Source of the DNA: Rhodospirillaceae bacterium
GTDB lineage: Bacteria; Pseudomonadota; Alphaproteobacteria; JAEUKQ01
Reading direction: 5' to 3'
Length of the DNA stretch: 64,000 nucleotides
Assembly: GCA_016722635.1 (NCBI GenBank)
Contig: JADKIX010000003.1
Coordinates: forward strand, 155,543-219,542
Shown: piece by piece, positions 2,853-51,100 of the stretch
Layout of the letters: every line of letters starts with the position of its first letter
Position numbering within the stretch: the first letter of the stretch is position 1
Made by a program: the position numbers and the translations under genes
Notes under the pieces: generated by a model
The model's input: only the letters and a program-made list of their open reading frames with translations
Told to the model about the DNA's origin: nothing
Databases searched by the model: none

Positions 2853-3866
2853 TTGGGAGTATCAGAAATGTTAAAAAGATTGTTAATTGTTGCTACCACA
2901 TCTATCGTTGCATCTTCTTATGCCTTTGGACAAACGACAAAAACAACCACTACTGTAACAACCACTTCACAAACATCTGAAAATAATAGCTCAACCCAGG
3001 CTCAACCTCGTTTTATATTTTCTTTAGAGGGTATTTATACCATGACCCGTACAAATGAAATTGAGTATGGTCGTGTTGGGTTGTTTAATCCCCAGTCACG
3101 TAATATTTCTTTGGATAAAGGCTGGGAGATTAGAGGTACGGCCAGTTTCCGTCTTGATAATAATATTGAAATAGGACTTGGTTTGGGTTGGTCAAGACTA
3201 AATCCGGTTAAAGATAGTGGGCCAGGTGGATTCCTCGCTAGCGTCAATTTAGATCCTGATGTAACAATACCCGCAATTTTTTCAACCGGGACTCAGGCTA
3301 AATTAAAAGAAAGCCATTACGTGGTTGATGCCCAATTAGCATTTCCACTTGCTTTTAACTCTTTTAAGTTGAAAATTTTTGGTGGTATTCGGTATGCAAA
3401 TTTTGATGAAAAAATTAACGCCTCAGCCACTGCGTTATTTGGGTTGGTCAATATTGCCCAACAAAGAAAACAAGATTCCTGGGGAATTGGTCCACGCGTA
3501 GGGGTAGCTTTTGAGATGCCCATTTCATCGGGTGGTTTGAGTCTTGTGGGTGACTTTGGTGCCGCCGCTTTGTTTGGCAATCATAAAACCAAAACCAACA
3601 CAACCCTAAGTTTGTTAGGATTTCCGATCATCAATAGATCAGTTGCACAAAAAGACAATAGAACAGTTTATTCTTTGGAAGGTAATCTTGGTTTAGCATA
3701 CAATTTCGGTCAGTCTGGAATACAGATTGCTTTAGGGTACCATTTTGAAAGTTGGGTTAATGTTGATAATACCCAGACACGTCGTGTGGGTGGTTCGTTA
3801 GTTGGTGAAAAACAAAGCGATCGGCTACAGCATGGCCCATTTCTAAAAGTATCTTTTGGATTCTAA
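2853..3866 (+). CDS. outer-membrane beta-barrel (porin-like) protein with Thr-rich N-terminal linker
   Basis: Signal peptide (likely true start near 2868, MLKRLLIVATTSIVASSYA), alternating amphipathic beta-strand pattern, C-terminal aromatic F; followed by rho-independent terminator. Confidence 0.6.
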   Translation: MGVSEMLKRLLIVATTSIVASSYAFGQTTKTTTTVTTTSQTSENNSSTQAQPRFIFSLEGIYTMTRTNEIEYGRVGLFNPQSRNISLDKGWEIRGTASFRLDNNIEIGLGLGWSRLNPVKDSGPGGFLASVNLDPDVTIPAIFSTGTQAKLKESHYVVDAQLAFPLAFNSFKLKIFGGIRYANFDEKINASATALFGLVNIAQQRKQDSWGIGPRVGVAFEMPISSGGLSLVGDFGAAALFGNHKTKTNTTLSLLGFPIINRSVAQKDNRTVYSLEGNLGLAYNFGQSGIQIALGYHFESWVNVDNTQTRRVGGSLVGEKQSDRLQHGPFLKVSFGF

Positions 3867-6685: not shown

Positions 6686-8028
6686 TTATTCTTTATCAAT
6701 AAGATGGATGAAAGATCCAATTGTTTTTTTGCGTTGTAATCCCGCTAAGCCTAATTGACCTGCCTGATTATCCAAGACACTATATAAATGCTGGTCTGAA
6801 GAGACATTAATTGAACTTGCATAATGAAATTCATGTCCCCTGTAACAACTGCCAGCCGGGCCCAATATAGTCTTTTGAAGTGTTTGAACCTGCCTATAAC
6901 CTAACACCAATTTTTTATGTTGCATTGAAGTCGTTAAATCAAATAGACCCGCCATCGGCCATAAATTTCCACTTTCGTCCTCAATATTTTGCCCCATAAC
7001 CATAAAACCACCACATTCCCCATAAATAACCGTTGATGAATCGTCTGAAAAAATTTTTAAGGCATTTAAAAATCCACGATTTTGAGAAATTTCCCTCAGA
7101 TAAAGTTCAGGATAACCGCCAGGTAAATAAACGGCATCAACATGAGAAGGCGGTTGTTGGTGGGCCAAAGGGGAAAATAAAAATATTTCTGCCCCTGCTA
7201 ATCTCCAAGCCTCAAGAAGAACTGGGTACACAAAACTAAAGGCCTCATCAAATGCAACCGCAATACGTTGCCCAAGGACAGGCAAAGAAACTTCAGGAAA
7301 AGGCAAAGGTTGTAGGGAGGGATTCTTTATCGAACTGTTTTTTCAATTATATTAATCAACCGATCAATATCTATATAATGTGCAACCAAATTGCTGATCA
7401 GCTCAAATTTTTCTTGAAAGTGCTGTATGTCAATAGGCTGATGCAACCCTAGATGTCGATGGTACAGTACTAAATCATTTAATCTTGGTAAATATCCTAA
7501 AATTGGCACCTCTATTTCTTGCAAGCTTTTAGATAAAATTTCTTCGTGACGCTTACTGCCCACCTGATTAAGTATAATTCCTGCTACCTTAAATTGCTTT
7601 TGAAAATTTAAAACCCCTTGGATTATGGGGAGAATGGTTTCTGCTAATCGGTGGCAATTCACAATTAAAATAATAGGAAGGTTCATTAAGGTTGCAATAT
7701 CAACCGTGCAAAAACCAACGCTTTGACTGCCATCAAATAATCCCATCACCCCTTCCCCCACCACCCAATCATTATGATCCAGCAAATATTCTACGGTTGC
7801 ATGAACCCTTGTTTGGGGCATCGCCCATAAATCAATATTAAAACAAATATTTTGGGTGATTTTTTGATGAAACATTGGATCAATATAGTCAGGCCCTACT
7901 TTAAAACTGCCGATTTTATATCCTTTTTTTTGTAATAAATTTATTAAAGCGGCGGTAATAACTGTTTTGCCCGAATCCGAACTCAGGGCACTGACAATAA
8001 ATCCTTTGTTAAAAAAATGTGGGTTCAT
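6686..8028 (-). pseudogene. cobB: cobyrinate a,c-diamide synthase (CobB/CbiA) split into N-terminal ATPase (7327..8028) and C-terminal glutamine amidotransferase (6686..7306) ORFs by a frameshift in a T6 tract (7338..7343)
   Basis: Two adjacent ORFs in different frames together equal full-length CobB (233+206 aa). A 1-nt insertion in the A6/T6 run restores a continuous reading frame. May be a sequencing artefact. Confidence 0.6.
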
Positions 8029-8050
8029 AATAATATCCCAAATGAAAAAA

Positions 8051-8851
8051 TTACGTTAATAAGTAATGGGATAGTTCTGTGTAATATTGGACAACTGGCC
8101 CCAAAATAATAATCGCGGGTGGGATAAGGGTTAACATATGTGCAGAACAATCATTTAAAAAATCTTCAATATTAATAACTAGAATCTTTTGATTATGGTT
8201 TGAAGCATGCCCGATAATGGCAATGGGATGATGCTTGCTATATCCACTTTGAATAAGGCAATGAAGGATGGCAGGTAAATTCTGCAACCCCATGTAAATA
8301 ACCATCACGGGGGGGGCAAGGCCAGTGGCAAAATTTTTTAATAACCCCTCTAATTCTTTAGATAAGATATGGCCGGTGACAAACGTTACGGACGAATTTT
8401 CTTCCCTAATAGTTAATGGAATAGGCATTGCAGCTGCGGCGGCAAGGGCTGCTGTAACCCCGGGTATAATATAAAAATGGATTTTTGCTTTTGCGAGCGT
8501 CAGTAATTCTTCACCCCCTCTTGCAAAAATGAGTGGATCTCCACCTTTTAAACGCAGTACTTTATTGCCTTGTTTTGCCCAATCAATTAATTTTTGTGAG
8601 ATATCCGATTGATTAGCGGAAGGTTTCCCCCCTCTTTTCCCAGCAAAATGTAATTTAGCTTTTGAAGGGGCCAGTTTTAAAATTTCTTCCGAAACCAAAG
8701 CATCATACACGATAATATCAGCTTCTTGTATGGCTTTATAGGCAGCAATAGTTAAAAGCGAAGGATCGCCAGGGCCCGCACCCACCAACCACACATTTCC
8801 AGCTTTAAAAATTGGCTTAAAAGGTACGTTTGAGAAAGTTTTTTCTACCAT
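8051..8851 (-). CDS. cobA: uroporphyrinogen-III C-methyltransferase (SUMT)
   Basis: 266 aa; VWLVGAGPGDP and tetrapyrrole methylase motifs. Confidence 0.75.
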   Translation of the reverse strand: MVEKTFSNVPFKPIFKAGNVWLVGAGPGDPSLLTIAAYKAIQEADIIVYDALVSEEILKLAPSKAKLHFAGKRGGKPSANQSDISQKLIDWAKQGNKVLRLKGGDPLIFARGGEELLTLAKAKIHFYIIPGVTAALAAAAAMPIPLTIREENSSVTFVTGHILSKELEGLLKNFATGLAPPVMVIYMGLQNLPAILHCLIQSGYSKHHPIAIIGHASNHNQKILVINIEDFLNDCSAHMLTLIPPAIIILGPVVQYYTELSHYLLT

Positions 8852-9057
8852 TGCTCTTTGATCATTATTTATAAATTGATTTTAATTATTTTTATAACTT
8901 ATATCCCATGAAATCATAACAACTTAATAAGAATTTTTTTTATTGTTTGTTTATATTAAATTTTGTGTTACTGATTCGTCGGATGCTGATGATAGTTCGT
9001 TTAAGTTTAATTGCTTAGTAAAATCGTACTAGTGAATTAAAAATTAAGGGTGGTAAA

Positions 9058-9315
9058 ATGAAGAAGAATTTTGCACTCGTAGCTTCGGCTTTTGCTGCGG
9101 CTTTGATAGTGAATAGTGTAACCCCGGTTATGGCGGAAGAAACTGCTCAGGAAAAATGTTATGGCATTGCCAAAAAAGGCAAAAATGATTGCCAAACAGC
9201 CAAATCTTCCTGCGCTGGCACTTCTACCCGTGATAGTCAAGGTGATGCTTGGATATATGTGCCAAAAGGAACATGCGAAAAAATAGTCGGCGGTAGTTTA
9301 ACTTTAAAGAAATAA
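9058..9315 (+). CDS. bufA: DUF2282 bufferin-type RiPP precursor peptide (Sec signal peptide, 4-Cys core)
   Basis: 85 aa; signal peptide ending VMA/EE; core [29 protein letters not shown] with conserved Cys spacing; strong SD AAGGGTGG; directly upstream of DUF692/DUF2063 genes. Confidence 0.75.
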
Positions 9316-9362
9316 TTGTTTTTCTAATTTCAATTAATCTAACTTAGATCTCAACAATAAGG

Positions 9363-9611
9363 ATGATAAAAATGAATAAATTATTAATTGCTTCTGCTAT
9401 CAGTGCTGCTTTTGCTTTAAGTGCCTGTACAACGACAGATAATAAAGCACATATGGAAAAGTGCATGGGCATTGCCAAAAAAGGCATGAATGACTGCAAA
9501 ACTGCTCTGCACGCATGTGCTGGCAAATCAACTGCTGACAAACAAGCCACTGATTGGATTTGGTTGCCAGAAGGCACTTGTGCTAAAACGGGTGGTAAAT
9601 TAAATAGGTAG
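9363..9611 (+). CDS. bufA: second DUF2282 bufferin-type precursor paralogue with lipoprotein signal (LSAC lipobox)
   Basis: 82 aa; lipobox L-S-A-C then TTT; core EKCMGIAKKGMNDCKTA..ACAGKST..GTCAK matching paralogue 1 residue-for-residue at the Cys motifs; SD AAGGA 8 nt upstream. Confidence 0.75.
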   Translation: MIKMNKLLIASAISAAFALSACTTTDNKAHMEKCMGIAKKGMNDCKTALHACAGKSTADKQATDWIWLPEGTCAKTGGKLNR

Positions 9612-9649
9612 TTTCAACTTAATTTTTAGTTGAATATGGAGGGAGATAT

Positions 9650-10495
9650 ATGGAAAATGATACCTATTCTCCCCCGCCTGTTTATGGTGCCGGAATAGGG
9701 TTGAGATATCAGCATCATGAAGATGTCTTACATAGTAAGCCCCGGATTAATTGGCTTGAAGTTCATAGTGAAAATTATTTTGGCGGCGGCTTAGCACTTG
9801 ATTATCTGAAAAAAATTCGTCTCGATTACCCAATCAGCCTGCATGGCGTTGGCCTTTCTCTTGGTTCTGCTGACAACCTATCACAGACCCATTTAGAAAA
9901 ATTTAAGCAATTAATTCATATTATCTCCCCTGCTTTGGTTTCAGAACATTTATCCTGGAACATCATTAATGGCGTTTATTTAAATGATTTAATTCCAACC
10001 CCTTATACCGATGAAGTGTTGGCCATTGTTTCTCGTCATGTTGATGAAACACAGAACTATTTCAAACGACAGATCTTAATTGAGAACCCCTCAACTTATT
10101 TAGAGTTCAATGTGGCCGATTACTCGGAAGCTGATTTTTTATCGGCCCTCGTTAAAAAAACGGGGTGTGGCTTATTACTTGATGTTAATAATATTTTTGT
10201 TAGTAGCAAGAATCATCGGTTTGATGCGAATGAATATTTACTGAAAATTCCAGTTGAAGCGGTTAAAGAAATTCACTTAGCAGGCCATACCAAAAAACAA
10301 TTCAAAAAAATTTCCATTCTGCTAGATGATCATGGCAGTAAAGTGGATGATGAAGTATGGGCCTTATACCAGCGTACACTACAAATAATGGGCCGAAAAC
10401 CTACTTTAATTGAGTGGGACAGCAACATCCCGGCTTTGAATGTAATATTAGAGCAAGCACGTATCGCAGAAAGTTATCTGGAGCGTGAGAACTAA
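9650..10495 (+). CDS. bufB: DUF692 (UPF0276) MbnB-like iron enzyme, predicted precursor-Cys-modifying enzyme
   Basis: 281 aa; N-terminal GAGIGLRYQHHEDVL..INWLEVHSENYFGGG typical of DUF692/MbnB TIM-barrel family; SD GGAGG. Confidence 0.75.
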   Translation: MENDTYSPPPVYGAGIGLRYQHHEDVLHSKPRINWLEVHSENYFGGGLALDYLKKIRLDYPISLHGVGLSLGSADNLSQTHLEKFKQLIHIISPALVSEHLSWNIINGVYLNDLIPTPYTDEVLAIVSRHVDETQNYFKRQILIENPSTYLEFNVADYSEADFLSALVKKTGCGLLLDVNNIFVSSKNHRFDANEYLLKIPVEAVKEIHLAGHTKKQFKKISILLDDHGSKVDDEVWALYQRTLQIMGRKPTLIEWDSNIPALNVILEQARIAESYLEREN

Positions 10496-10497
10496 TC

Positions 10498-11277
10498 ATG
10501 GAATTTATCAAGATCCAACAGCTATTCTTGCGGTATATTTTGTATGGGGAATATCACCCATCTTTAGATAAATTAATTAAAGGTGATATTATAAACCCTA
10601 TGGAGCGTCTTAATATTTACCGCAATAATACCTTCATTAGCTTACAAGAATGTTTGAAGTCCACTTTTCCCGTATCGCAGCAAATTCTTGGGGAAAAGTT
10701 TTTTACCCAAGCAGCTAGAAAATACATTATTGATTTCCCGCCAACCAATGGTTGTTTGATATTTTATGGGGAAAATTTTTCAAAATTTTTATCTTCCCTG
10801 ATAGAAATTAAGGATTGGCCCTATATCATTGATGTTGCATCTTTTGAATATGCGATGCAGCAATCTTTTTATGCAGAAGATTATCCAGTCTTAACAGCGG
10901 AAGATCTCTCCTTAATACCAGCAGAAAAATACGGCGACCTAGTGCTGAATTTTCAGCCTTCCTTGCAATTGATTCAATCGTTTTATCCTATTGATGACAT
11001 CTGGTCTATTCATAATGATCATTCAATCGAGCAAATGGTTGAATTGAAAATTATTAAGGCAAAGAACCCTGAAAACTATTTGGTTTACCGGCTAAATAAT
11101 ACAGTTTATTTTGAGAAAATTGATCAAGATGAGGCAGGTTTTATTCAGCATTTGAAACAAGGTATGACTTTTGAAAAAGCGTTTTCTGTTATCTCCAATA
11201 TTTACCCGAATTTTAATCTGACCAAAACGATCCGACGGTTGATCCAGTTTCAAGTCCTAACTAGTTATAATACTTAA
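10498..11277 (+). CDS. bufC: DUF2063 (MbnC-like partner) protein
   Basis: 259 aa; starts 3 nt after bufB stop; family invariably partnered with DUF692. Confidence 0.65.
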   Translation: MEFIKIQQLFLRYILYGEYHPSLDKLIKGDIINPMERLNIYRNNTFISLQECLKSTFPVSQQILGEKFFTQAARKYIIDFPPTNGCLIFYGENFSKFLSSLIEIKDWPYIIDVASFEYAMQQSFYAEDYPVLTAEDLSLIPAEKYGDLVLNFQPSLQLIQSFYPIDDIWSIHNDHSIEQMVELKIIKAKNPENYLVYRLNNTVYFEKIDQDEAGFIQHLKQGMTFEKAFSVISNIYPNFNLTKTIRRLIQFQVLTSYNT

Positions 11278-11295
11278 ATGAGGGAGTAGCTGATA

Positions 11296-11763
11296 ATGGA
11301 AGAACCTTCTCCGCCTTCAGTCAGGTGCCACAAAAATTTTATATTAAGTTTTTATAAAATATTAGAAATGATACCGGAAGCGATACCAGCTTTTATCCTA
11401 AGATTAGGGGTTTCATTAGTTTTTTTTCGCTCCGGTTTAGCCAAGCTACAAGAAAATAGTTGGGCTTTATCGCAACAAACCATATTTTTGTTCCGCGATG
11501 AATATCATATGCCATTTCCCGAGCTAACTGCTTATGTAGCTGCATCGGTTGAACTGTTTGCACCCTTAATGCTGTTATTTGGTATAGGTAGTCGTATAGC
11601 TGCCGCCGCCATGTTAGGAATGACCCTGGTAATCCAGATATTTGTTTACCCGGAAAGTTACCCTGATCATTTAATGTGGTTAGGCCCTTTACTATATATT
11701 GTCCTCCGTGGTCCAGGCGGTCTATCCTTTGATTATTTATTTCGTAAAACTATCGATAAATAA
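11296..11763 (+). CDS. DoxX-family membrane protein
   Basis: 155 aa, 3-4 TM helices, DoxX-like; SD GAGGGAG; last gene of the operon; true start may be the internal Met (MIPEA...). Confidence 0.6.
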   Translation: MEEPSPPSVRCHKNFILSFYKILEMIPEAIPAFILRLGVSLVFFRSGLAKLQENSWALSQQTIFLFRDEYHMPFPELTAYVAASVELFAPLMLLFGIGSRIAAAAMLGMTLVIQIFVYPESYPDHLMWLGPLLYIVLRGPGGLSFDYLFRKTIDK

Positions 11764-27420: not shown

Positions 27421-28936
27421 TTATTTTATTTGTCTGCGTTCATTGAGAGGCTGATGTTGCCGATCCATATTACCAAAACGGGTTAATGAGCCGTCAAAGA
27501 ACAATTCAACCGTACCGATTGGACCATGGCGTTGTTTCGCAATGTTAAGTTCTGCAATATTATGGACTTTAATGCCTCTTTCCTTCCAACGTTCATAACG
27601 AATGTTAAATTTGCCTTCATCTTCTTCGTTGCGTTGTTTCGGTTGTTCCCGCTCATGATAATATTGCTCCCGGTAAATAAACATGACCACATCTGCATCT
27701 TGTTCGATAGAGCCTGATTCGCGTAAATCAGCCAATTGCGGCCGTTTATCTTCCCTTGTTTCCACGGCACGACTTAACTGGGAAAGGGCAAGAACAGGCA
27801 CGTTTAATTCTTTGGCAACCGCTTTCAACCCCCCTAGTTATTTCTGAAACTTCTTGAACTCGGTTATCAGATCTGACGGGCCCTGAGGATTGCATTAATT
27901 GTAAATAATCGATCACGATTAGGCCGAGCCCATATTGTCTTTTAACCCTTCTTGCACGGGTACGAAGAGAGGCTACACTTAAGGCAGGTGTGTCGTCTAT
28001 GTACAAATTTAATTTGTTCAATTGCTTTGAGACTTCAATTATTTTCAGAAAATCATCGCCTTTAATATCGCCACGGCGAATACGATCCGAAGAAATTTCG
28101 CTTCTTTCGGCTAAGATTCGGGTCGCTAACTGCTCAGATGACATTTCGAGGGAGAAAAACAAGGTGACAGCACCGGCGGATGTGGGATCTACACCTTTTT
28201 TATCACCAGGTTCTAGCTTATATGCCTCAACCGCATTAACCGCAATATTCATTGCTAATGCCGTTTTACCCATCGATGGCCGACCTGCTAAGATAATCAA
28301 ATCGGAGGGATGCAATCCCCCTAGCTTGCGATCAAGATCAACTAATCCAGTGGTAACACCAGCAATTTTGCTAGTCCTACTGGCAGCGGCTTCCGCCGTT
28401 TTAATCGCATTATTTAAGGAAATGTAAAAAGGTTGAGCTTTAGATTCAATTTGACCGGTTTCTGCCAAGCTATATAAATTTTGCTCAGCCATCTCAATCT
28501 GCTTATGGGCGTTTTTTTCAGGCTCTTGAAAAGAAAAAGCCTGATTAACTACTTTTTCTCCAACATCAATGAGTTGTCGGCGGATGAACAAATCTTGAAT
28601 TTGGCGCGCGAAATCTTCCGCATTAATAATACTAATGACGGAGTCTTTTAATTGGGTTAGATATTTGGATCCACCCTGGCCCTTTAAAACCTCATCTTGG
28701 TCGAATTGGTTTTTTAAAGTCATGACATCGGCGATTTGTCCGCTTTGGATTAAACGGCCAATAGCCTGATATATTCGTCCATGCAAAGGATCAGAAAAAT
28801 GCTCAACTTTAAGAAATTCGGCAATTTTCTCATATACTAGGTTATTGACTAGCAAGGCCCCCAAAAATGCTTGCTCAATCTCATAATTAATTGGCAGATC
28901 TCTATCTTTCGTCAAGGGTGCTTGCTCTTTCATCAA
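27421..28936 (-). CDS. dnaB: replicative DNA helicase DnaB, reading frame interrupted by +1 G in a G6/C6 tract (27829..27834)
   Basis: ORFs 27746..28936 (N-terminal domain plus Walker [10 protein letters not shown]) and 27421..27828 (C-terminal ...[20 protein letters not shown]...) are contiguous DnaB. Removing one G of AGGGGGG gives [13 protein letters not shown] as in all DnaB proteins. Essential gene, so most likely a sequencing artefact. Confidence 0.85.
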
Positions 28937-37206: not shown

Positions 37207-38672
37207 ATGCCTAAACCATTTAAAATTTTATTTTTGATAGAACTGCTACTCTTACCTATTTTATGGGGCTGTACTTCTTCGAAAAACGATAGTTTAACTT
37301 CCACACAATCTTCTTCTAACCTCGATGAAAATTTATTAGAAGAAGGGATTATGGATGTTATCGATTTGCATCTTGAGGTCAGCGATCCGAAAACTCTGGT
37401 TGAACGGGCATTGAAAGGGGTTATCCAGCAATCTTCTTCGCTAAATATTATTACATATAAGAATGCGATTTTATTAGAAAAAAATCATCAATTTTTGGCT
37501 CGCTTTACATCTCCATATTCGCAAGATACGGAAGAATGGGTTAATTTTGCTAACACAATAATTGCCAAGGCGCGGCAATCTGATCCCCAACTATCTGCCA
37601 TGAGCCAGGATAGTTTGCACAAGGTTTTCTTTAACACCATACTAAAATCCTTGGATCCCTATTCAAGATATGTAGATCCTTTTGAAGCCCACGTTAACAG
37701 ATTGATGCGCGAAGGAAATAATCTAGGCATTCTAATATCAAAGAACCCTACCGGAATTGTGATTGCAGCCCTTATAGCCCAAGGCAGTGCTGCAAATGCA
37801 GGGTTAAAGAAGGAAGATTACATCATAGCTATCAATGGCAAATCTTTGCATGCACTGGACATTCCCCAAATTTATCAATTATTATATGATCCAAGTCTTA
37901 ATCCTCTTTCCTTAACTATTCAGCGCGATAGTTCCACGCCCTTTGAAATTACGATTGATCAATCACATAACAAAAATACATCGGTCAAGGTTTTTGTTCA
38001 GGACAAAATCCTTTACATAAAAATTACTAATTTCAACGAATTAACCGTACCACTTATATTGGATAAAACCACTCCTATCCTGGCAAATATGCAACAAGAT
38101 TTAGAAGGTGTTGTTTTAGATCTACGCAGCAATCCGGGGGTCTACTATTGCCAGCCGTTGAAGCGGCTGACTTATTCCTCGATCAAGGTGTTATCACTAT
38201 TGTCAAAGGGCGCAATCCACAAAGTTATCAATTTTTTGAAGCAACAGAGGGTGATCATTTCCATCGTTTGCCCACGGTAGTTATCATTAATGGCAGAAGT
38301 GCCTCTGCTGCAGAGATTCTTACCGCGGCTTTAAAGGATAATAAAAGGGCGATCATCATTGGTTCCACTTCCTACGGGAAAGGAACCGTCCAAACTATCC
38401 CCTCCCTATCAAATAACGCAGAAATATCCATTACCTGGGCAAATTTTTATTCGCCTAACGGTAGCCCCATTAATATTAAAGGAATTATTCCTCACTTTTG
38501 TACCCAGGATATAGTTGAAACAACCATTGACAAGCAACTAGAAGGCTATTACTTGCAAGAAAAGCCATCGAACGCAACATGCGCTAAAAGCACGGCGGTA
38601 CGCAACATAGAGGAATTGGTTGCCAAGAAATTAATAAAAAGTGGAAGATTTGCACAGCTATTACTTCAGTGA
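37207..38672 (+). CDS. ctpA: S41 carboxyl-terminal processing protease, frame interrupted in a G5 tract (38136..38140)
   Basis: ORF 37207..38280 (PDZ region, LDLRSNPG) and ORF 38148..38672 (AVEAADLFLDQGVITI...SASAAEI...SYGKGTVQ). Adding one G gives canonical LDLRSNPGGLLL-AVEAADLF. Confidence 0.75.
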
Positions 38673-39057: not shown

Positions 39058-40434
39058 TTATGAAACAATAACTGACTGATCATTATCAGCAGGTTTTTGT
39101 TTAGCATCTAACAGTGCTTTTTCAGCTTTCTGTAAAAAACTGCCAGAAGTTAAGTTGGCCCCAGAAGATGAGGTAATGCCTAAAGAAATTTTTATTTTAA
39201 TTGCCTGTTGATCTTGAAACAAAGACTGCTTTACTAAATATTGTCTCAGTTTTTTTGCAAATTGTACGGCAACTTCCGTTGGGGTATCCATCGTTAAAAT
39301 TGCCAAATCATGAGAACCCATACGGATCAATAAATCTGAAATCGATATATAGGCAGAAATTTTTTTACCTATTTCACCCATCATCTTCTCTATGTCCGCA
39401 AGGGATGTTTTAGGGGTTGTCCCCTCACCTATAAAATCAATCGACATCATGATCAAGGAAACCGGCCTCGCCATTTGTATAGCATTCTTAATGGAGCCTT
39501 CTAAATATCGGAGTAAATATTTTTTATTATAAAGACCTGTTGAATGGTCAATAAAAGTTGCAGAAACGCTCATGTTCTGCAATGACTTTAATCTTTCTGA
39601 GCAGGAGCTTTTTCTTAATTGTGTCTTGCAGCGTAATAATACTTCAGCTTTTTCGATGGGCCTCAAGAAATAATCACTTGCACCCATATCTAACCCAGCT
39701 ACAAATTTTAATAATTGGCTTTCATCACCGGTCAATAAAATGGGTATACGGCGGGTTAAGTCTTCTGACCTTAAAAAAGATAAAAGTTCTAGATTTTTAT
39801 TATTTTCCAAGCCTAAACTTAAAATAATTAGAGAATAATCATGGGTATGGATTGCTTTAACTACATCTTGATCGTTATTTATATAGGTAACTTTGCTTTT
39901 GACGTCTTCTAAAGTTTTCTTTATCTTCTCCCCAGTTGAGCCGGATTCATGGATAAGTAAGATGTCATCATAGGCAAGATCATCCTCAATGCTTGTATTG
40001 CTGCTTGGAAGCAGATAAAAATCGCCTAAGGTTTTTTCTCTGGTATTTAGCTCATCAAGTAAAAATTTAAGCTGCAAGAGGGAACGTACCCTTGCGAATA
40101 AAGCAATGTCATTAATCGGCTTCGTTAAGAAATCATCTGCCCCTACCTCTAAACTACGCACGCGATGTTGGATGTCACCGAAGGCAGTTATCATTACCAC
40201 TGGTAAATCAGCTATCACACTATTAGAACGTATCCGTTGACATACTTCAAATCCATCCATTTCCGGCATCATCACGTCTAATAAAACCAAGTCCACATGC
40301 TGCTGATTAAGTATATCTAAAGCTTTCTGACCTGAATTAACCAAAATCACCTGGAAATTTTCAATAACTAATTTCGCTTCTAATAAGCGTAGATTTGGGA
40401 GGATGTCATCAACAACAAGAATACATGCTGGCAT
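39058..40434 (-). CDS. pleD: PleD-like response regulator (REC-REC-GGDEF) with degenerate GGDEF motif
   Basis: REC1 with DVMMPEMDG, adaptor REC2, C-terminal GGDEF-fold in which RYGGEEF is replaced by RMGSHDL; start set at Met 4 nt downstream of divK stop. Confidence 0.75.
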   Translation of the reverse strand: MPACILVVDDILPNLRLLEAKLVIENFQVILVNSGQKALDILNQQHVDLVLLDVMMPEMDGFEVCQRIRSNSVIADLPVVMITAFGDIQHRVRSLEVGADDFLTKPINDIALFARVRSLLQLKFLLDELNTREKTLGDFYLLPSSNTSIEDDLAYDDILLIHESGSTGEKIKKTLEDVKSKVTYINNDQDVVKAIHTHDYSLIILSLGLENNKNLELLSFLRSEDLTRRIPILLTGDESQLLKFVAGLDMGASDYFLRPIEKAEVLLRCKTQLRKSSCSERLKSLQNMSVSATFIDHSTGLYNKKYLLRYLEGSIKNAIQMARPVSLIMMSIDFIGEGTTPKTSLADIEKMMGEIGKKISAYISISDLLIRMGSHDLAILTMDTPTEVAVQFAKKLRQYLVKQSLFQDQQAIKIKISLGITSSSGANLTSGSFLQKAEKALLDAKQKPADNDQSVIVS

Positions 40435-40438
40435 AAAA

Positions 40439-40837
40439 TTAATCTTTCTTCGCAGATGCAGCAAGATGATGCTGGATTGTTTGTAAAAATGGCACAATGG
40501 ATATAGGCTTGGCAATATAGCCTTCACAGCCGCTTTCTCTTATTCGTTGTTCATCGCCTTTCATGGCAAAGGCCGTAACAGCTATAATGGGAATTTTCTT
40601 TAGTTTTTCATCATCTTTAATCCATTTTGTTACTTCAAGACCCGAAATTTCTGGAAGTTGAATATCCATTAATATTAAGTCAGGGAAGTGCATATGGGCA
40701 AGTTTAAGTGCTTCAATTCCTTGTCTAGCTTGAATAATTTCATATCCCTGGGCTTCAAGCAAATCGTTGAATAAGCGCATATTCAGCTCATTATCTTCAA
40801 CAATCAAAATTTTCTTTTTTATTGGGATTTTATTCAT
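40439..40837 (-). CDS. divK: single-domain response regulator DivK
   Basis: [16 protein letters not shown]...[14 protein letters not shown]...[16 protein letters not shown]; divK-pleD operon order. Confidence 0.8.
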
Positions 40838-40947
40838 TTTTAGAAACTTGTATGACCCTTTAATAAATTTCCTTATGGAGATTGATTGCCGCAAATTTTA
40901 TTGATCAATTACCCATTGTAATCCGGCATTTTCCTGTCTTATATTCT

Positions 40948-46027: not shown

Positions 46028-48151
46028 TTATAAAGCATGTTCTTTCAGCCATATCTCAACTGTGTAAGATTGGTTGTCGCTGTCCATAACTGTAATTCTC
46101 GCAAAACCAACATCTGCGGGAGTCCAAGATATTTTACGCCGATACCTAGGAAAATCGATTTGTTGCCCATTAACAAACCATAAAAAAGGTGGCTTTCCTC
46201 CACTTATTTCCAACATAATTGATTCGATTGCCGGTTGGGTCTTAACTTCAACAACGGACTTATCAAGCGGAAAATCAATTTTTATTTGATTGGCTTGAGA
46301 ATATAAACTGTTTAAAGACACGACGTTTTTTTTGTTATTAAAAAATTTTAACGCTGTGGGTAGGTCTTCCCACTTTATTTCTTGAAAATTATCAGGTTTT
46401 TTAGGTGAGCTTGAAGACAAAACAGGAAGCTGGTTAAAAACATCAAATAAAATTGGTGCAGCTTCTTCCCGGCCAATTTGATAAGGGGAAAAAGATCCAT
46501 CCGGTCTTCCCACCCACACCCCAACCGTATAATCCTGATCATACCCAATCGCCCAAGCATCCCTAAACCCATAAGAGGTGCCCGTTTTAAAGGCCACCTC
46601 CCGCCCCTGTTTCAAATATTTGGCCGCTATCATCCCTGGGGGCGAAGGGCTATCTTGCAAAATTTGCCGTATATACCATGCGGCAATGTCACCCATCAGC
46701 CTTACCCCTTCTGTTGCGGGGATTACAGGCGCATAATTTAAAGGCTTAACCCAACCATCATTAGCAAAACCAGTATAAAGGGTTACCAATTGTTCCAAAT
46801 TAATACCAATTCCACCCAAAGCAATTGGTAATCCCGCCCGCTGAACACCTGGTGGCAAATGAAAAACAATGCCAGATTTCTTAAGAATTTCTAAGAAATG
46901 GTCTGGCCCAAGCCGTTCAAGTATTAATACAGCAGGAATATTTAAAGATAATTGTAGCGCTTTTCTAGCATTAACATTTCCATGAAAATTTCGATCGAAA
47001 TTTTGCGGCGCATAATCTCCAAAACGGACAGGCGCATCATTGATCAATGTTTCCGGATGTAGAAAAAGTTGATCGAAAGCAATCCCATAAATTAAAGGTT
47101 TTAAAGTTGAACCAGGGGAACGAATGGCGCGAACCATATCATTTTGTCCAAGAATTTTTGGGTCATAGAAATTCCCAGAGCCAACATACGCTCGTACCAA
47201 CCTTGTTTTATTTTCTACCACCAAAATAGCTAATGTTGCCCCATTTTGCAGAAACGTTTGTTTGTTTTGTGCCAACTGTTCAACACTTGTCTGAATATTA
47301 ATATCCAAAGAGGTGGGAATAATCTGAAGAAGCGCTGATTTTTCTGCTGCTTTATATAACCGATAAGATAAATGGGGGGCTAGCCTTGGTACATTAAATC
47401 GGCGATAGGGTAAAGTTTGCGCTTGCCCTTGCATTGCCTCGTCTTTGGTCAACGCATCCGCTTTTGCCAATTTATCTAAAACAAAATCCCGAATAAGTTT
47501 TGCCTTTTCTGGGAAACGATCTGGACGGGTTGACTCGGGTGATTGTGGCAAGCCTATCAGTAAGGCAATTTCCGCATCACTAAGCACGAAGGGTTCCTTA
47601 CCAAAATATAATAAAGAAGCAGCGCGAAGCCCCTGAATATTACCTCCATAAGGGGTTAAATTCAGGTACATTTCCAAAATCTCTTGCTTGCTATATCCTA
47701 ATTCTAATTGCACGGCCCGAAACATTTCAACGATTTTTGATGCAAAATTACGCGGGCGAGGTTCAAGCAACCTAGCCGTTTGCATGGTAATAGTCGATGC
47801 CCCTGAAACAATTCTGCCGTTTGTTACTAATTGCCAACTAGCCCTCAAAAGAGCAATAGGATCAATCCCTGGATGTTGAAAAAACCTTTTGTCTTCAACC
47901 ACTTGTAAGAAGCGAACAAATTTAGGATCAATTTTATCTACCTTAACAGGCAGTCGCCAATATCCGTTTTTGGTTTGATAGATATGAATTGGCTGGCCCT
48001 GATAATCCGTTACGATCACGGAATATTCCTGCAGCTTTGTCGTATCAAGCGGAAATATGAAATTTAAAATAAAGAAAACAAGCCCTGTTAAAAACAGGGC
48101 TTTTAAGACTTTAGAATATACTCGTAAAATGTTAATAAAAATCCACATCAT
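46028..48151 (-). CDS. pbpC: penicillin-binding protein 1C (transglycosylase-transpeptidase)
   Basis: 707 aa; GT51 motifs plus transpeptidase SxxK; paired with alpha-2-macroglobulin gene. Confidence 0.8.
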   Translation of the reverse strand: MMWIFINILRVYSKVLKALFLTGLVFFILNFIFPLDTTKLQEYSVIVTDYQGQPIHIYQTKNGYWRLPVKVDKIDPKFVRFLQVVEDKRFFQHPGIDPIALLRASWQLVTNGRIVSGASTITMQTARLLEPRPRNFASKIVEMFRAVQLELGYSKQEILEMYLNLTPYGGNIQGLRAASLLYFGKEPFVLSDAEIALLIGLPQSPESTRPDRFPEKAKLIRDFVLDKLAKADALTKDEAMQGQAQTLPYRRFNVPRLAPHLSYRLYKAAEKSALLQIIPTSLDINIQTSVEQLAQNKQTFLQNGATLAILVVENKTRLVRAYVGSGNFYDPKILGQNDMVRAIRSPGSTLKPLIYGIAFDQLFLHPETLINDAPVRFGDYAPQNFDRNFHGNVNARKALQLSLNIPAVLILERLGPDHFLEILKKSGIVFHLPPGVQRAGLPIALGGIGINLEQLVTLYTGFANDGWVKPLNYAPVIPATEGVRLMGDIAAWYIRQILQDSPSPPGMIAAKYLKQGREVAFKTGTSYGFRDAWAIGYDQDYTVGVWVGRPDGSFSPYQIGREEAAPILFDVFNQLPVLSSSSPKKPDNFQEIKWEDLPTALKFFNNKKNVVSLNSLYSQANQIKIDFPLDKSVVEVKTQPAIESIMLEISGGKPPFLWFVNGQQIDFPRYRRKISWTPADVGFARITVMDSDNQSYTVEIWLKEHAL

Positions 48152-48174
48152 GGTAGATGGCTTACATCATTTCC

Positions 48175-51100
48175 CTATTTTTGAAGCTTAAAAGGGTTAA
48201 TGATTATTTTTAAGATTTCTCCACGCGCCCGAATTTCAGGTTGATACATGGCCTCAATTTGTACCGCTGGCAGCATATAAGTGCCAGGGGTAATAACACG
48301 GGCCATATAGGCAACTTTAAATTTCTGACCTTCTTGCGTTGTTAAAGCCGCTACAAACCGGTCATCCAAATATTCCACATGGTCAAGCACCGAGATATCA
48401 TCCTTTAACCATTCAATATCTTTTAAGGAATTAGTATTTGCCAAACGGGAATTTTCCAATTCCAGCCCAGCTGGCAACAAATCAACAATTAGGGTTTGAT
48501 TCCAAGGTTTATGCATTGCCATCCCTTCAATAACCACTACCACGATATCGGTTTGCTTCATATTAGACAGCTCAATTTCTTTCCCGTCTAAATCATAAAA
48601 CCTTTTACTGATGATGAACCCATTTGATAGGGCAGGCAGCGGTTGAACAGGTACACCGGTAACACTAGCGGCCACCCACATTGGGCTGCCAGCATTCGTT
48701 ACCGAGAACCCTTGCTTGCTTAAATCCGCAAAACTTTGGTTAGGCAAGCTGGGTTTCAGCCCGCTCATCTTCTGCGATTGATTAACAACCACGTTTAAAG
48801 GCTCATTTTCTCCTGCCAAAGAACGGGCAGCCATAACCAGCCATACCTGCTCCTGTGTGCTTAAATAATAGCGTTTTTGCAGTAACCCAACCAAACGGTT
48901 TAGTTCGGTACTATAGTTAATGGTCGGCACTTTGCTTTCGCTGGTTAAAGAAATGATCGCGGCAAGATCACGGATAGAACTGCCATAATCAGCCCAAGAA
49001 GCAATATTGCCTTCATAACGCGCCAATGCCATTTTAAACCCGGCTGTTGCCCGTTCTTGATCGCCATAAAGCGATAAGGCAGCGGCAACATGGGCGATAG
49101 ATAAGGCATCCGGCAAAGTCTTTAGATATGTATCATAGAAATACTTAGCTGTCGAAATATCTCCAGCCCCCGTATAGGCCAAAACATATAAGGCATAAGC
49201 ACGGGAAGATAAGGCCGAAGAATTGGTCAATTGGTAATCCTCCGCATGTTTTGCCAACCACGATAGCCCTTGGCGGTAAGATAGATCAGGAACGGCAAAA
49301 CCTTTTGCTTTCGCCCTTGCCATAAACTCGATGACATAGGCCGACAACCAAGGTTCAGGATTCGAGCCGGATGACCATAACCCAAAACTACCGTCAAAAC
49401 GCTGCTTTTCTGTTAATAATTGTAAAGCCCGTTCAATTTTACCCTTAATTTCCTCAGGATTATCCGTAATACCCACATCCCATTTCTGGGCAAGCTCAAA
49501 TAAATATACTAATGGTAAAGCACGGCTGGTTATTTGTTCTAAACAACCATACGGATAACGATCCAGTTCATCTAATAAACCAGCCACATCAAAATTAGGC
49601 CTGTTACTGATCGAAGGTTTAAAGGAAACCGTTTCAGGTACAAACCTTGTAAAATAGCTGGCTTCCAATTTAAAACTTTCACCCGTATTAAGTAATTGAA
49701 CCGTCCGCTCGGTTTGGGCGGCTTGGGCAGAACGAATACGGATGGCGAATTGACGTTCCAAGCTAAAGCCATTAGGCCCCTCAACCTTTAATTTGATGGA
49801 AGCAACACCTAACTTATCGGCTTGGACGGCGATTACTTGGTTAATTTGTTGGGACTGATTGAGCTCGGTTTGAAAAACCGCTTGTTGCTCACTCAGCTGG
49901 ATCTCTTTCCCTGGGCTGGTGAGCGATATTTTATATAACCCAGGAAGGGCATCCATATTTTGGATGGACAGGACAAACTGACTTTTATCCCCTAATGCCA
50001 AAAATCTTGGCATATTCATCGTTGTAACCAACGGCGAACGCACAATAAGGTTAGCACTGGCAGAGCCCACCTTATCTTGGGTATGCACAACCGCCATAAT
50101 CCTGAGTTTGCCATTATAATCCGGCAAATCAAATTTAACAGCGGCATTCCCTTGGGCATCTACCTGCACCATCCCAGAATACAAAGCAACCAGTTTAACT
50201 AGGGAAGGTGCGCCTTTTTCAGCTGACGCATCCCCACCCTCACGAATCTGTCCCCGACGCCTAGACTTTCCGTCAATCAATTGGCCGTATAAATCACGTA
50301 GATCAACCCCCAGCATCCGTCGGCCAAAAAAGTACTGAAGCGGATCGGGACTTACGAAATCCGTCAGGCTTAAGACCCCTTCATCGACAGCGGCCACCGT
50401 TATAAAAGCGGGCTGGCCATTTTGAAGCCCGGAAACTTTTACAGGAATAGTTATCTGTTGATTAGGTTCAACCTTGTCTGGAACACTGATGCTAACCCCA
50501 ATTTTATAAACATCTTTATTTAATCCCAACCAAGCAACTCCAATTGCACGGCCAGGACCTTTATCAGCCGTACTGCCAGGACGGAAAGCAGTGGCCACAA
50601 TATATGCCCCTGCGCCCCAATCTTTACTGACAGGGATTTCAACCACTACACCTTCTGGGGAAACAGCAACATTTTGGCTGCTAATGATTTTATCTGTTGC
50701 CACATTTAACAAAAGCTCGCCCTTAAATGGGGCGCGAATGGATATTTTTGCTTTTTCACCGGGTAGATAGGATGGTTTATCCGCGGCAATCTCTAATTTA
50801 TCCGGGGTATCCGCACTTTCTAGACCCCACCCCCAACCCGCATATAAGCGTATGCTGGAAGCGGATGTACCCTCTTCATTAAAAACTTCCAGGCGGTAGC
50901 GTCCCCAGCCAAATTTTGTTGATAAAATAGCAGGTGCATTTTCTGAACCCGACAACTTCCCGCTACCTACTTCTTCTTCTTGGATGGAGACTTTATAATC
51001 CCAATATCCAGAGTGATAAAACCATTGATAACGATAGTTTTCTTTTACCAAACGCCATTTTAGGTTGTCAAAATTCTGCTGTTTGCCATTTTGGCCAACC

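Follow-up and report, generated by a model that had tools for sequence, protein, structure and literature searches.

A very probable Buf1-type bufferin operon with a soluble and a putatively lipid-anchored precursor in an uncultured alphaproteobacterium

Among the described systems, the buf1 operon of Caulobacter vibrioides (CCNA_03363-03366; BufA1-BufB1-BufC1-BufD1; Leprevost et al. 2024, PMC11626156), source of the founding bufferin, encodes a four-cysteine DUF2282 precursor that carries a Sec signal, a multinuclear non-haem iron oxidase (MNIO, DUF692), a DUF2063/RRE-like partner and a DoxX protein. Cysteines II and III are converted to 5-thiooxazoles, cysteines I and IV form a disulfide and copper is bound; BufB and BufC are necessary and sufficient, and DoxX is dispensable (PMC11626156; 10.64898/2025.12.15.693703). 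The gig operons of Cupriavidus metallidurans and Legionella pneumophila and a BvgAS-controlled operon of Bordetella pertussis have the same DUF2282, DUF692, DUF2063 and DoxX core, and their metal or virulence regulation is documented. Tandem precursor genes have been reported (PMC12452194), and lipidated bufferins and RiPP-lipoprotein hybrids, also associated with MNIOs and with an SPII lipobox directly before the core, have been predicted (PMC13056109); about 16 % of the Buf2 precursors are predicted to be lipidated (PMC12452194). The HvfABC-type systems (oxazolin, fontiphorin and gonophorin, with EGKCG precursors) share a related MNIO, a DUF2063 partner of the 3DEE fold, often a DoxX/HvfX protein, the 5-thiooxazole group and copper binding. 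Methanobactin MbnABC is also a copper-binding RiPP system with a distantly homologous MNIO and the same iron-ligand set, but it differs in its precursor, its partner MbnC in place of DUF2063, its oxazolone/thioamide chemistry, its export route and its role in copper acquisition.

In the window, the 64-kb stretch of DNA analysed here, five co-oriented genes fill positions 9058-11763 of the forward strand in the order bufA1a-bufA1b-bufB-bufC-bufD, as seen from the ORF list and the profile searches (Table 1). The corresponding GenBank proteins are MBL0337800-804, bufA1a being MBL0337800.1. The families and the gene order are those of the Caulobacter buf1 operon, which also belongs to an alphaproteobacterium, and the locus is very probably a Buf1-type bufferin (captophorin) operon on the chromosome of an alphaproteobacterium that is uncultured and AT-rich. 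The contig contains indel errors elsewhere, but the buf genes are intact and agree with their orthologues. When the five proteins were searched against the rest of the window with tblastn, no paralogues were found.

Table 1. Features of the bufferin locus and its surroundings, with positions in the window.
Feature	Position	Strand	Description
cobB	6686-8028	-	Upstream of the operon, divergent
cobA	8051-8851	-	Adjoins the operon upstream, divergent
28-bp block TTGTTTGTTTATATTAAATTTTGTGTTA	8943-8970	+	Upstream of bufA1a; candidate promoter or operator
bufA1a	9058-9315	+	85-aa DUF2282/BufA1 precursor; PF10048, 92.2 bits (cut-off 22.4), E 1.9e-26
bufA1a signal			Predicted signal-peptidase-I type, ...TPVMA/EETAQ; core cysteines C34, C45, C52, C73
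bufA1b	9372-9611 (most likely start)	+	79-aa DUF2282/BufA1 precursor; PF10048, 74.1 bits (cut-off 22.4), E 8.4e-21
bufA1b signal			Predicted lipoprotein type, lipobox A-L-S-A/C19; four further core cysteines C31, C42, C49, C70
bufB	9650-10495	+	281-aa MNIO (DUF692), bufferin-maturase subfamily; PF05114 / MbnB_TglH_ChrH (MNIO), 332 bits, E 2.9e-99
bufC	10498-11277	+	259-aa DUF2063 (HvfC_N) partner with RRE-like C-terminal domain; PF09836, 75.5 bits, E 4.1e-21
bufD	11296-11763	+	155-aa DoxX-family membrane protein, accessory gene; PF07681, 63.3 bits, E 3.4e-17

A preliminary description of the stretch had proposed a bufferin RiPP operon of DUF2282, DUF692, DUF2063 and DoxX genes. The profile searches assigned all five ORFs to these families (E 3.4e-17 to 2.9e-99), including the ORFs at 9650-10495 and 10498-11277 to DUF692 and DUF2063, and the proposal is borne out by the BufB equivalog match, the four-cysteine DUF2282 precursors with their signals and the MNIO-partner fold described below. 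Some of its details need adjustment. The gaps between the genes are 56, 38, 2 and 18 nt, so that the range of 2-47 nt given earlier applies if bufA1b begins at the ATG at 9363 (first gap 47 nt) but not with the likelier start at 9372. A Shine-Dalgarno-like purine-rich stretch precedes four of the five starts, and the one ahead of bufC is weak.

With 368 bits, BufB exceeded the cut-off of 310 set for the NCBIfam equivalog model NF050167 MNIO_BufB, and it remained below the NCBIfam cut-offs for HvfB, MbnB, ApyH and ChrH. The nearest solved structure is 3BWW (E 1e-37). Residues H65, H100, E145, D178, N181, H209, D226, H228 and E255 of BufB are each matched by the same amino acid in the aligned MbnB chains of 7DZ9/7TCR. 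These nine positions we take to be the iron ligands of MbnB, and judged by the alignment the multi-iron site of BufB appears to be retained. The distant relationship of the enzyme to MbnB (TIGR04159, 54 bits, E 1.4e-14) and to HvfB (219 bits) would also fit a methanobactin-like or oxazolin-like secreted chalkophore with oxazolone/thioamide groups that serves copper acquisition. Both scores are, however, far under the cut-offs of these models (325 and 360, respectively), while the BufB model was passed, and the precursors are folded DUF2282 domains of about 55-60 residues with Sec signals instead of MbnA or EGKCG repeats. No MbnA, MbnC or MbnT-type genes were found, and the oxazolin chemistry itself has now been revised to 5-thiooxazole (10.1101/2025.11.18.689057), which together make a chalkophore of this kind extremely improbable. 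The methanobactin-like oxazolone/thioamide chemistry mentioned in the preliminary description is not that of this subfamily, which is now assigned 5-thiooxazoles (10.64898/2025.12.15.693703).

The BufC protein is divergent, with 32 % identity to its closest relative beyond its own clade. Its near-full-length match to NF050145 HvfC was weak (47 bits against a cut-off of 142), and a sequence search of the PDB with BufC gave no match. In the fold search, the AF2 model of BufC, of moderate confidence (pLDDT 74.5), matched TglI (8HI7_A, 8HCI_A) and NGO1945 (3DEE) with E-values from 3e-6 to 1e-5; there was also a weak match to TbiB1, an RRE protein. The model thus supports a predicted fold like that of the known MNIO partners TglI and NGO1945. 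Also the DoxX protein matched its HvfABC-type counterpart model weakly (NF050144 HvfX, 46 bits against 80), and accordingly the HvfB, HvfC and HvfX models all stayed below cut-off, in addition to which the precursors here lack the EGKCG repeats of that type. The bufD gene is present in the related loci L001, L002 and L004 and missing from L005.

Both small proteins contain the motif EKC-G-x4-G-x-NDC-x6-CAG-x18-20-C. In an alignment of 57 DUF2282 sequences, consisting of bufA1a, bufA1b and 55 other proteins, the four core cysteines were invariant, in agreement with the earlier observation of four conservatively spaced cysteines in each precursor. Four core cysteines also distinguish the precursors from Buf2 (BUF_6/12Cys), which has six or twelve conserved cysteines, and against the BufA2 model NF050166 they scored 39 and 32 bits, below the cut-off of 60. 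The AF2 model of bufA1b has a core with block-mean pLDDT of 87-95, formed by a two-stranded sheet and a short helix as described for BufA1 (PMC11626156), and residues 4-19 are modelled as helical. Searches of the PDB with the precursor gave no match by sequence and nothing significant by fold. While word-indexed homologue searches with bufA1b and BufC returned just 3-4 matches, a full HMMER scan for DUF2282 relatives gave 1006 matches at E<=1e-3.

The signal peptides and the lipobox were called by inspection and conservation. The N-terminus of bufA1a begins with an MKK n-region, followed by a hydrophobic core and a predicted cleavage site between VMA and E. The open frame of bufA1b reaches further upstream to an ATG at 9363, but its start is most likely the ATG at 9372 (MNKLL...), because the orthologues in L001 and L002 begin at MNKLL. 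The lipobox of bufA1b, ALSA before the cysteine, is conserved in three orthologous loci, the orthologues in L001 and L002 keeping ALSAC, and among the 150 closest DUF2282 relatives about 9-12 show a lipobox-like motif. The preliminary description made no mention of this lipobox. Because bufA1b carries it in conserved form, a single BufBC pair probably serves two bufferins of the operon, one of them soluble and the other anchored in a membrane. An explicit description of soluble and lipidated Buf1 paralogues sharing an operon with one BufBC was not found in the literature consulted.

The order soluble A1a, lipobox-bearing A1b, B, C, D is common to the window, L001 and L002/L003, with 73-92 % protein identity. 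Purifying selection acts on each of the five genes (dN/dS 0.03-0.15), with values of 0.09-0.15 for bufA1a against L001 and L002 and of 0.03-0.13 for bufA1b. The two cores are only 62 % identical and differ in the flank of the third cysteine, SSC in bufA1a and HAC in bufA1b; furthermore, many DUF2282 genes lie apart from MNIO genes, and their products may be unmodified (PMC12452194). These points would suit a situation in which A1a is probably the sole substrate of BufBC and A1b an unmodified, disulfide-bonded protein, for example a metal sensor, a chaperone or an envelope protein. This is nevertheless quite unlikely, as A1b retains the conserved G/N/D positions besides the four invariant cysteines, HxC is the majority motif of the DUF2282 family in the 57-sequence alignment, and tandem precursors have been published as one enzyme with several substrates (PMC12452194). 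The position of bufA1b between bufA1a and bufB in three diverged loci and its dN/dS against L001, at 0.03 the lowest in the operon, also argue for two substrates.

Upstream of the operon, the block TTGTTTGTTTATATTAAATTTTGTGTTA is nearly identical in the window, L001 and L002/L003, although L002 has another gene upstream; the window contains a single copy, with 0 chance matches expected. The scan for sigma-70 promoters and terminators gave fewer promoter-like hits than in shuffled sequence, and none upstream of bufA1a or at TTGTTTGTTTATATTAAATTTTGTGTTA. An ECF-type motif (GTAACC...CGAA-like) and a MerR-type palindrome were sought by eye in 8852-9057 and nothing convincing was seen. An inverted repeat at 9006-9041 was set aside because L002 does not share it.

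The annotated ORFs of the window include no metal-responsive regulator, ECF sigma factor or NrsF, so copper induction is unsupported. The absence itself had been recognised in the preliminary description, where it was called unusual; the latter does not hold, since the related loci L001, L002, L004 and L005 have no ECF sigma/NrsF genes either and such genes, reported in a part of the Buf1 clusters and not in Buf2 clusters, are not counted as core genes (PMC12452194). The missing regulator, the position of the operon amid housekeeping genes and its equal GC content would be consistent with thiooxazole peptides that are made but serve another metal, oxidative or sulfur stress or constitutive envelope housekeeping. 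The homologous gig operons also react to gold and cadmium besides copper, and further stresses are suggested by MerC fusions and by DoxX (PMC11626156, PMC12452194). A role of this kind seems unlikely, however, in view of all the characterised members, which bind copper and/or aid under copper stress (PMC11626156; 10.1101/2025.11.18.689057), and a regulator may sit elsewhere in the genome.

The genes cobA and cobB lie directly beside the operon, upstream and divergent, as had been noted earlier, and the distance from cobA to bufA1a is 206 bp both in the window and in L001. A functional tie of the operon to these genes, such as cobalt buffering for cobalamin synthesis, would agree with this arrangement. 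In L002, a locus 73-80 % identical, a SurA-like gene nevertheless replaces cobA upstream while the downstream synteny is kept, no cob genes are present near L004 or L005, and the annotated ORFs of the window include no further ones. Because the adjacency is lost in L002, it is probably incidental, and the tie to corrin synthesis is highly implausible.

The modification chemistry, localisation, metal binding and physiological role of the two bufferins we infer by homology with the buf1 system of Caulobacter vibrioides. In the cytoplasm, a complex of BufB (multi-iron oxidase) and BufC (DUF2063/RRE-like) would bind both ribosomal precursors and, with O2, turn the middle cysteine pair of either core, C45/C52 of A1a and C42/C49 of A1b, into 5-thiooxazoles, with a loss of 4 Da each. 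The precursors would then be exported by Sec, and A1a would be cut by signal peptidase I after VMA26 to give a soluble periplasmic mini-protein. A1b would instead receive a diacylglycerol on Cys19, be cleaved by signal peptidase II and remain lipid-anchored, its destination probably being the outer membrane as the +2 residue is Thr rather than Asp. In the periplasm the outer cysteine pair would form a disulfide and the thiooxazole pair would chelate Cu(I)/Cu(II), buffering excess copper and possibly other soft metals. DoxX would be an accessory membrane protein, dispensable for modification. Two-compartment copper buffering, in which one BufBC serves two diverged Buf1 precursors, periplasmic and lipid-anchored, with an architecture conserved in an uncultured alphaproteobacterial clade and apparently without a dedicated metal-responsive ECF switch, is offered tentatively, with a chance somewhat below even.

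In comparison to the Caulobacter buf1 operon, the present one has a tandem pair of precursors where Caulobacter has a single one, its second precursor bears a predicted lipoprotein signal, and there is no adjacent sigF/nrsF. From the gig and Bordetella operons it differs by the extra, putatively lipidated precursor and the lack of a linked regulator, and from the lipidated bufferins predicted so far in that one BufBC stands in the same operon as both a putatively lipidated Buf1 and its soluble paralogue. The gene combination had at first been thought to be known from a few model bacteria and not from this lineage. That view has to be abandoned, as the founding bufferin likewise comes from an alphaproteobacterium (PMC11626156) and the members of the family have been put in the thousands (PMC12452194) and its clusters, under the name "captophorins", at more than 20,000 (10.1101/2025.11.18.689057).

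The operon is an ordinary intact member of the described bufferin clusters. Tandem precursors, clusters free of sigma/anti-sigma genes and lipidated bufferins are already described, and the sole unusual feature is the pair of a soluble and an apparently lipid-anchored precursor. As one more intact bufferin cluster, from an activated-sludge-type uncultured alphaproteobacterium, it changes little, since the family is very widespread. Acceptance of two substrates by BufBC and thiooxazole peptides in the lipoprotein pathway have been predicted bioinformatically, and no demonstration for Buf1 was found in the literature consulted; for both questions, whether BufBC takes two diverged substrates and whether thiooxazole peptides can travel the lipoprotein pathway, the soluble/lipobox Buf1 pairing would be a convenient natural system.

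The ORF listing and the raw sequence showed five plus-strand genes at 9058-11763, and in the Pfam search each ORF matched the family proposed for it in the preliminary description, with two DUF2282 proteins followed by DUF692, DUF2063 and DoxX proteins. The intergenic gaps were, in order, 56 (47 with the upstream ATG of bufA1b), 38, 2 and 18 nt. Ribosome-binding sequences rich in purines preceded four of the five starts; the one at bufC was weak. The GC content was equal within and beyond the operon (about 34-41%), so the operon does not look island-like, and tblastn detected no paralogues of the five proteins in the rest of the window. The proteins are identical to GenBank MBL0337800-804, which carry only generic DUF names there. 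The precomputed Pfam annotations of related loci name PF10048 "BufA1" and PF09836 "HvfC_N".

Coordinates and assignments of the features described (window positions)
Feature	Position	Strand	Assignment	Pfam E
bufA1a	9058-9315	+	DUF2282/BufA1	1.9e-26
bufA1b	9363-9611 as searched	+	DUF2282	8.4e-21
bufB	9650-10495	+	MbnB_TglH_ChrH (MNIO family)	2.9e-99
bufC	10498-11277	+	DUF2063	4.1e-21
bufD	11296-11763	+	DoxX	3.4e-17
28-bp AT-rich block	8943-8970	+	candidate promoter or operator
cobA and cobB together	6686-8851	-	cobA, uroporphyrinogen-III C-methyltransferase
cobB	6686-8028	-	cobyrinic acid a,c-diamide synthase; ORFs 7327-8028 and 6686-7306
dnaB	27421-28936	-	replicative helicase
Ctp-like protease	37207-38672	+	PDZ ORF 37207-38280, overlapping Peptidase_S41 ORF 38148-38672
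divK-pleD-like pair	39058-40894
alpha-2-macroglobulin and PBP1C-type genes	46028-53436	-	1753-aa bacterial alpha-2-macroglobulin; transglycosylase/transpeptidase
Outer-membrane protein	2853-3866	+	Legionella major-OMP family (PF05150)	3e-23

Among genome loci the closest is L001, which comes from an "Alphaproteobacteria bacterium" MAG (BufB 91% identical) and has the gene order of the window, including cobA and cobB upstream. In the more distant loci L002/L003 (73-82% protein identity over the five buf genes) the order A1a-A1b(lipobox)-B-C-D is kept, as is the cinA-like/map/radC/purB synteny downstream, but a SurA-like gene stands upstream in place of cobA, and the adjacency to corrin genes flagged earlier is therefore not a constant feature. 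At the Emcibacter locus L004 just one precursor accompanies B, C and D; at L005 one precursor accompanies B and C, and DoxX is absent. Sigma or NrsF genes were found in none of these loci. All five buf genes, both precursors included, are maintained by selection, since pairwise dN/dS against L001 and L002 was 0.03-0.15 and none of the five had internal stops. The 28-bp block upstream of bufA1a, TTGTTTGTTTATATTAAATTTTGTGTTA, was present also in L001 and L002/L003 despite the differing upstream neighbours and occurred once in the window; it may be a promoter or operator, although no known regulator motif could be matched to it. Other corrin-pathway genes were absent among the annotated ORFs of the 64-kb window, and cobB also gave a score, well under the cut-off, with the model for Ni-sirohydrochlorin a,c-diamide synthase.

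Judged by its sequence, BufB was decisively placed to subfamily by NCBIfam, scoring 368 bits on NF050167 "MNIO family bufferin maturase BufB" (cut-off 310). It fell below the cut-offs of the other MNIO equivalogs HvfB (219 bits vs 360), ApyH (71 vs 400), MbnB (54 vs 325) and ChrH (48 vs 600). When BufB was aligned with MNIOs of solved structure (3BWW, TglH and MbnB), its residues H65, H100, E145, D178, N181, H209, D226, H228 and E255 stood opposite identical MbnB residues, which we take to be the MbnB iron ligands. The sequence of BufC was divergent, with only four word-index homologues, the nearest beyond its own clade being from an Emcibacter MAG (32% identity), and a PDB sequence search gave no match. 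Its AlphaFold model, of moderate confidence (pLDDT 74.5; five-sequence alignment as input), matched TglI, a partner protein of an MNIO (8HI7_A, 8HCI_A), and NGO1945 (3DEE) with E 3e-6 to 1e-5, and the C-terminal domain showed weak likeness to the RRE protein TbiB1. The structure 3DEE is the DUF2063 partner named for captophorin clusters (10.1101/2025.11.18.689057).

The precursor cores were 62% identical and both included the family pattern EKC-G…G-NDC…CAG…G-C, whose four cysteines (CysI-IV; C34/C45/C52/C73 in A1a, C31/C42/C49/C70 in A1b) were invariant across a 57-sequence DUF2282 alignment. Being too short and Cys-poor, the precursors do not belong to Buf2: they scored 39 and 32 bits on the BufA2 model (cut-off 60), and neither has EGKCG repeats. 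The A1b AlphaFold model (pLDDT 82.7; core blocks 87-95) included strands 28-32 (holding CysI) and 62-66 and helix 69-72 (holding CysIV), and this predicted topology matches the published description of BufA1 (PMC11626156). A PDB fold search with the model gave no significant match among solved structures.

The start of bufA1b is most probably ATG 9372 (MNKLLIASAISAAFALSAC…) and not 9363 as originally read, because the L001 and L002 orthologues start there. Its signal ends with a canonical lipobox, A-L-S-A|C19, overlooked in the preliminary description, which is strictly conserved in the window, L001 and L002 and lies only about nine residues from the DUF2282 domain. In A1a the signal-peptidase-I site (VMA|EE) is an ordinary one; both signal peptides were called by inspection. 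Of the two bufferins encoded by the operon, one thus appears to be soluble and the other lipid-anchored. With A1b as query, a full HMMER scan over 1.8 billion representatives detected 1006 relatives (E<=1e-3), and a regular expression found a lipobox-like motif before the core in nine of the best 150 of these, with a few more seen by eye, so that lipidated Buf1 proteins are a minority, yet present beyond the window locus. The A1b relatives P0054 and P0052/P0053 from the scan include proteins of about 174 aa in which two DUF2282 domains are fused, and a single protein of 1082 aa that has 93 Cys and 13 DUF2282-like stretches and, if real, would be an extreme multi-domain bufferin.

The 557-kb MAG contig carries indel errors, as the essential gene dnaB is broken into two ORFs, one of 396 aa and one of 135 aa that lies in a different frame and carries the C-terminal part, and apparent pseudogenes in the window should therefore be treated with caution. 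The split of cobB, caused by the loss of 1 nt from an A-run compared with the intact 447-aa ORF of L001, is probably an assembly indel and not a pseudogene, and the split Ctp-like protease is likely another frameshift artefact. The buf genes were intact and colinear with their orthologues. Elsewhere in the window, the alpha-2-macroglobulin gene adjoins the PBP1C-type gene, a usual pairing that looks ordinary here. The Legionella-type outer-membrane protein stands in an otherwise alphaproteobacterial-looking genome, the divK-pleD-like pair fitting Alphaproteobacteria.

The features first called unusual are each already in the literature. Buf1 clusters number thousands across bacteria and have been described as the largest MNIO-associated RiPP group (PMC11626156, PMC12452194), and "captophorin" clusters in RefSeq exceed 20,000 (10.1101/2025.11.18.689057). 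The system was thought new to this lineage, but the founding bufferin system is alphaproteobacterial too. Sigma/NrsF genes, the lack of which had seemed odd, have been reported in Buf1 and not Buf2 clusters and are outside the core gene count (PMC12452194). Among Buf2 precursors, about 16% have been reported to bear lipoprotein signals (PMC12452194), and SPII lipidation is predicted for families that include the bufferins (PMC13056109).

In Caulobacter vibrioides, the conversion of BufA1 CysII and CysIII to 5-thiooxazoles (-4 Da each) requires BufB1 and BufC1, which together suffice for it; BufA1 is exported by Sec, loses its signal peptide and forms a CysI-CysIV disulfide (PMC11626156). The product has a very high affinity for Cu(II) (KD ~6e-15 M) and Cu(I) and aids growth under copper stress, DoxX being dispensable (PMC11626156); later work confirmed the assignment of the thiooxazoles (10.64898/2025.12.15.693703). 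By homology, we infer thiooxazole modification, export, disulfide formation and Cu binding for both window precursors. BufB and BufC would convert CysII and CysIII of A1a and A1b into 5-thiooxazoles, and A1a would be exported by Sec, lose its signal peptide, form the CysI-CysIV disulfide and bind Cu. A1b would differ in following the Lgt/LspA/Lnt route and staying membrane-anchored; Thr at +2 argues against an E. coli-type inner-membrane retention signal, as far as this E. coli-type rule applies by analogy to the lineage. The conserved combination of a single BufBC with two Buf1 precursors, one SPI and the other SPII, was not found described in the literature consulted, and it represents a modest variation.
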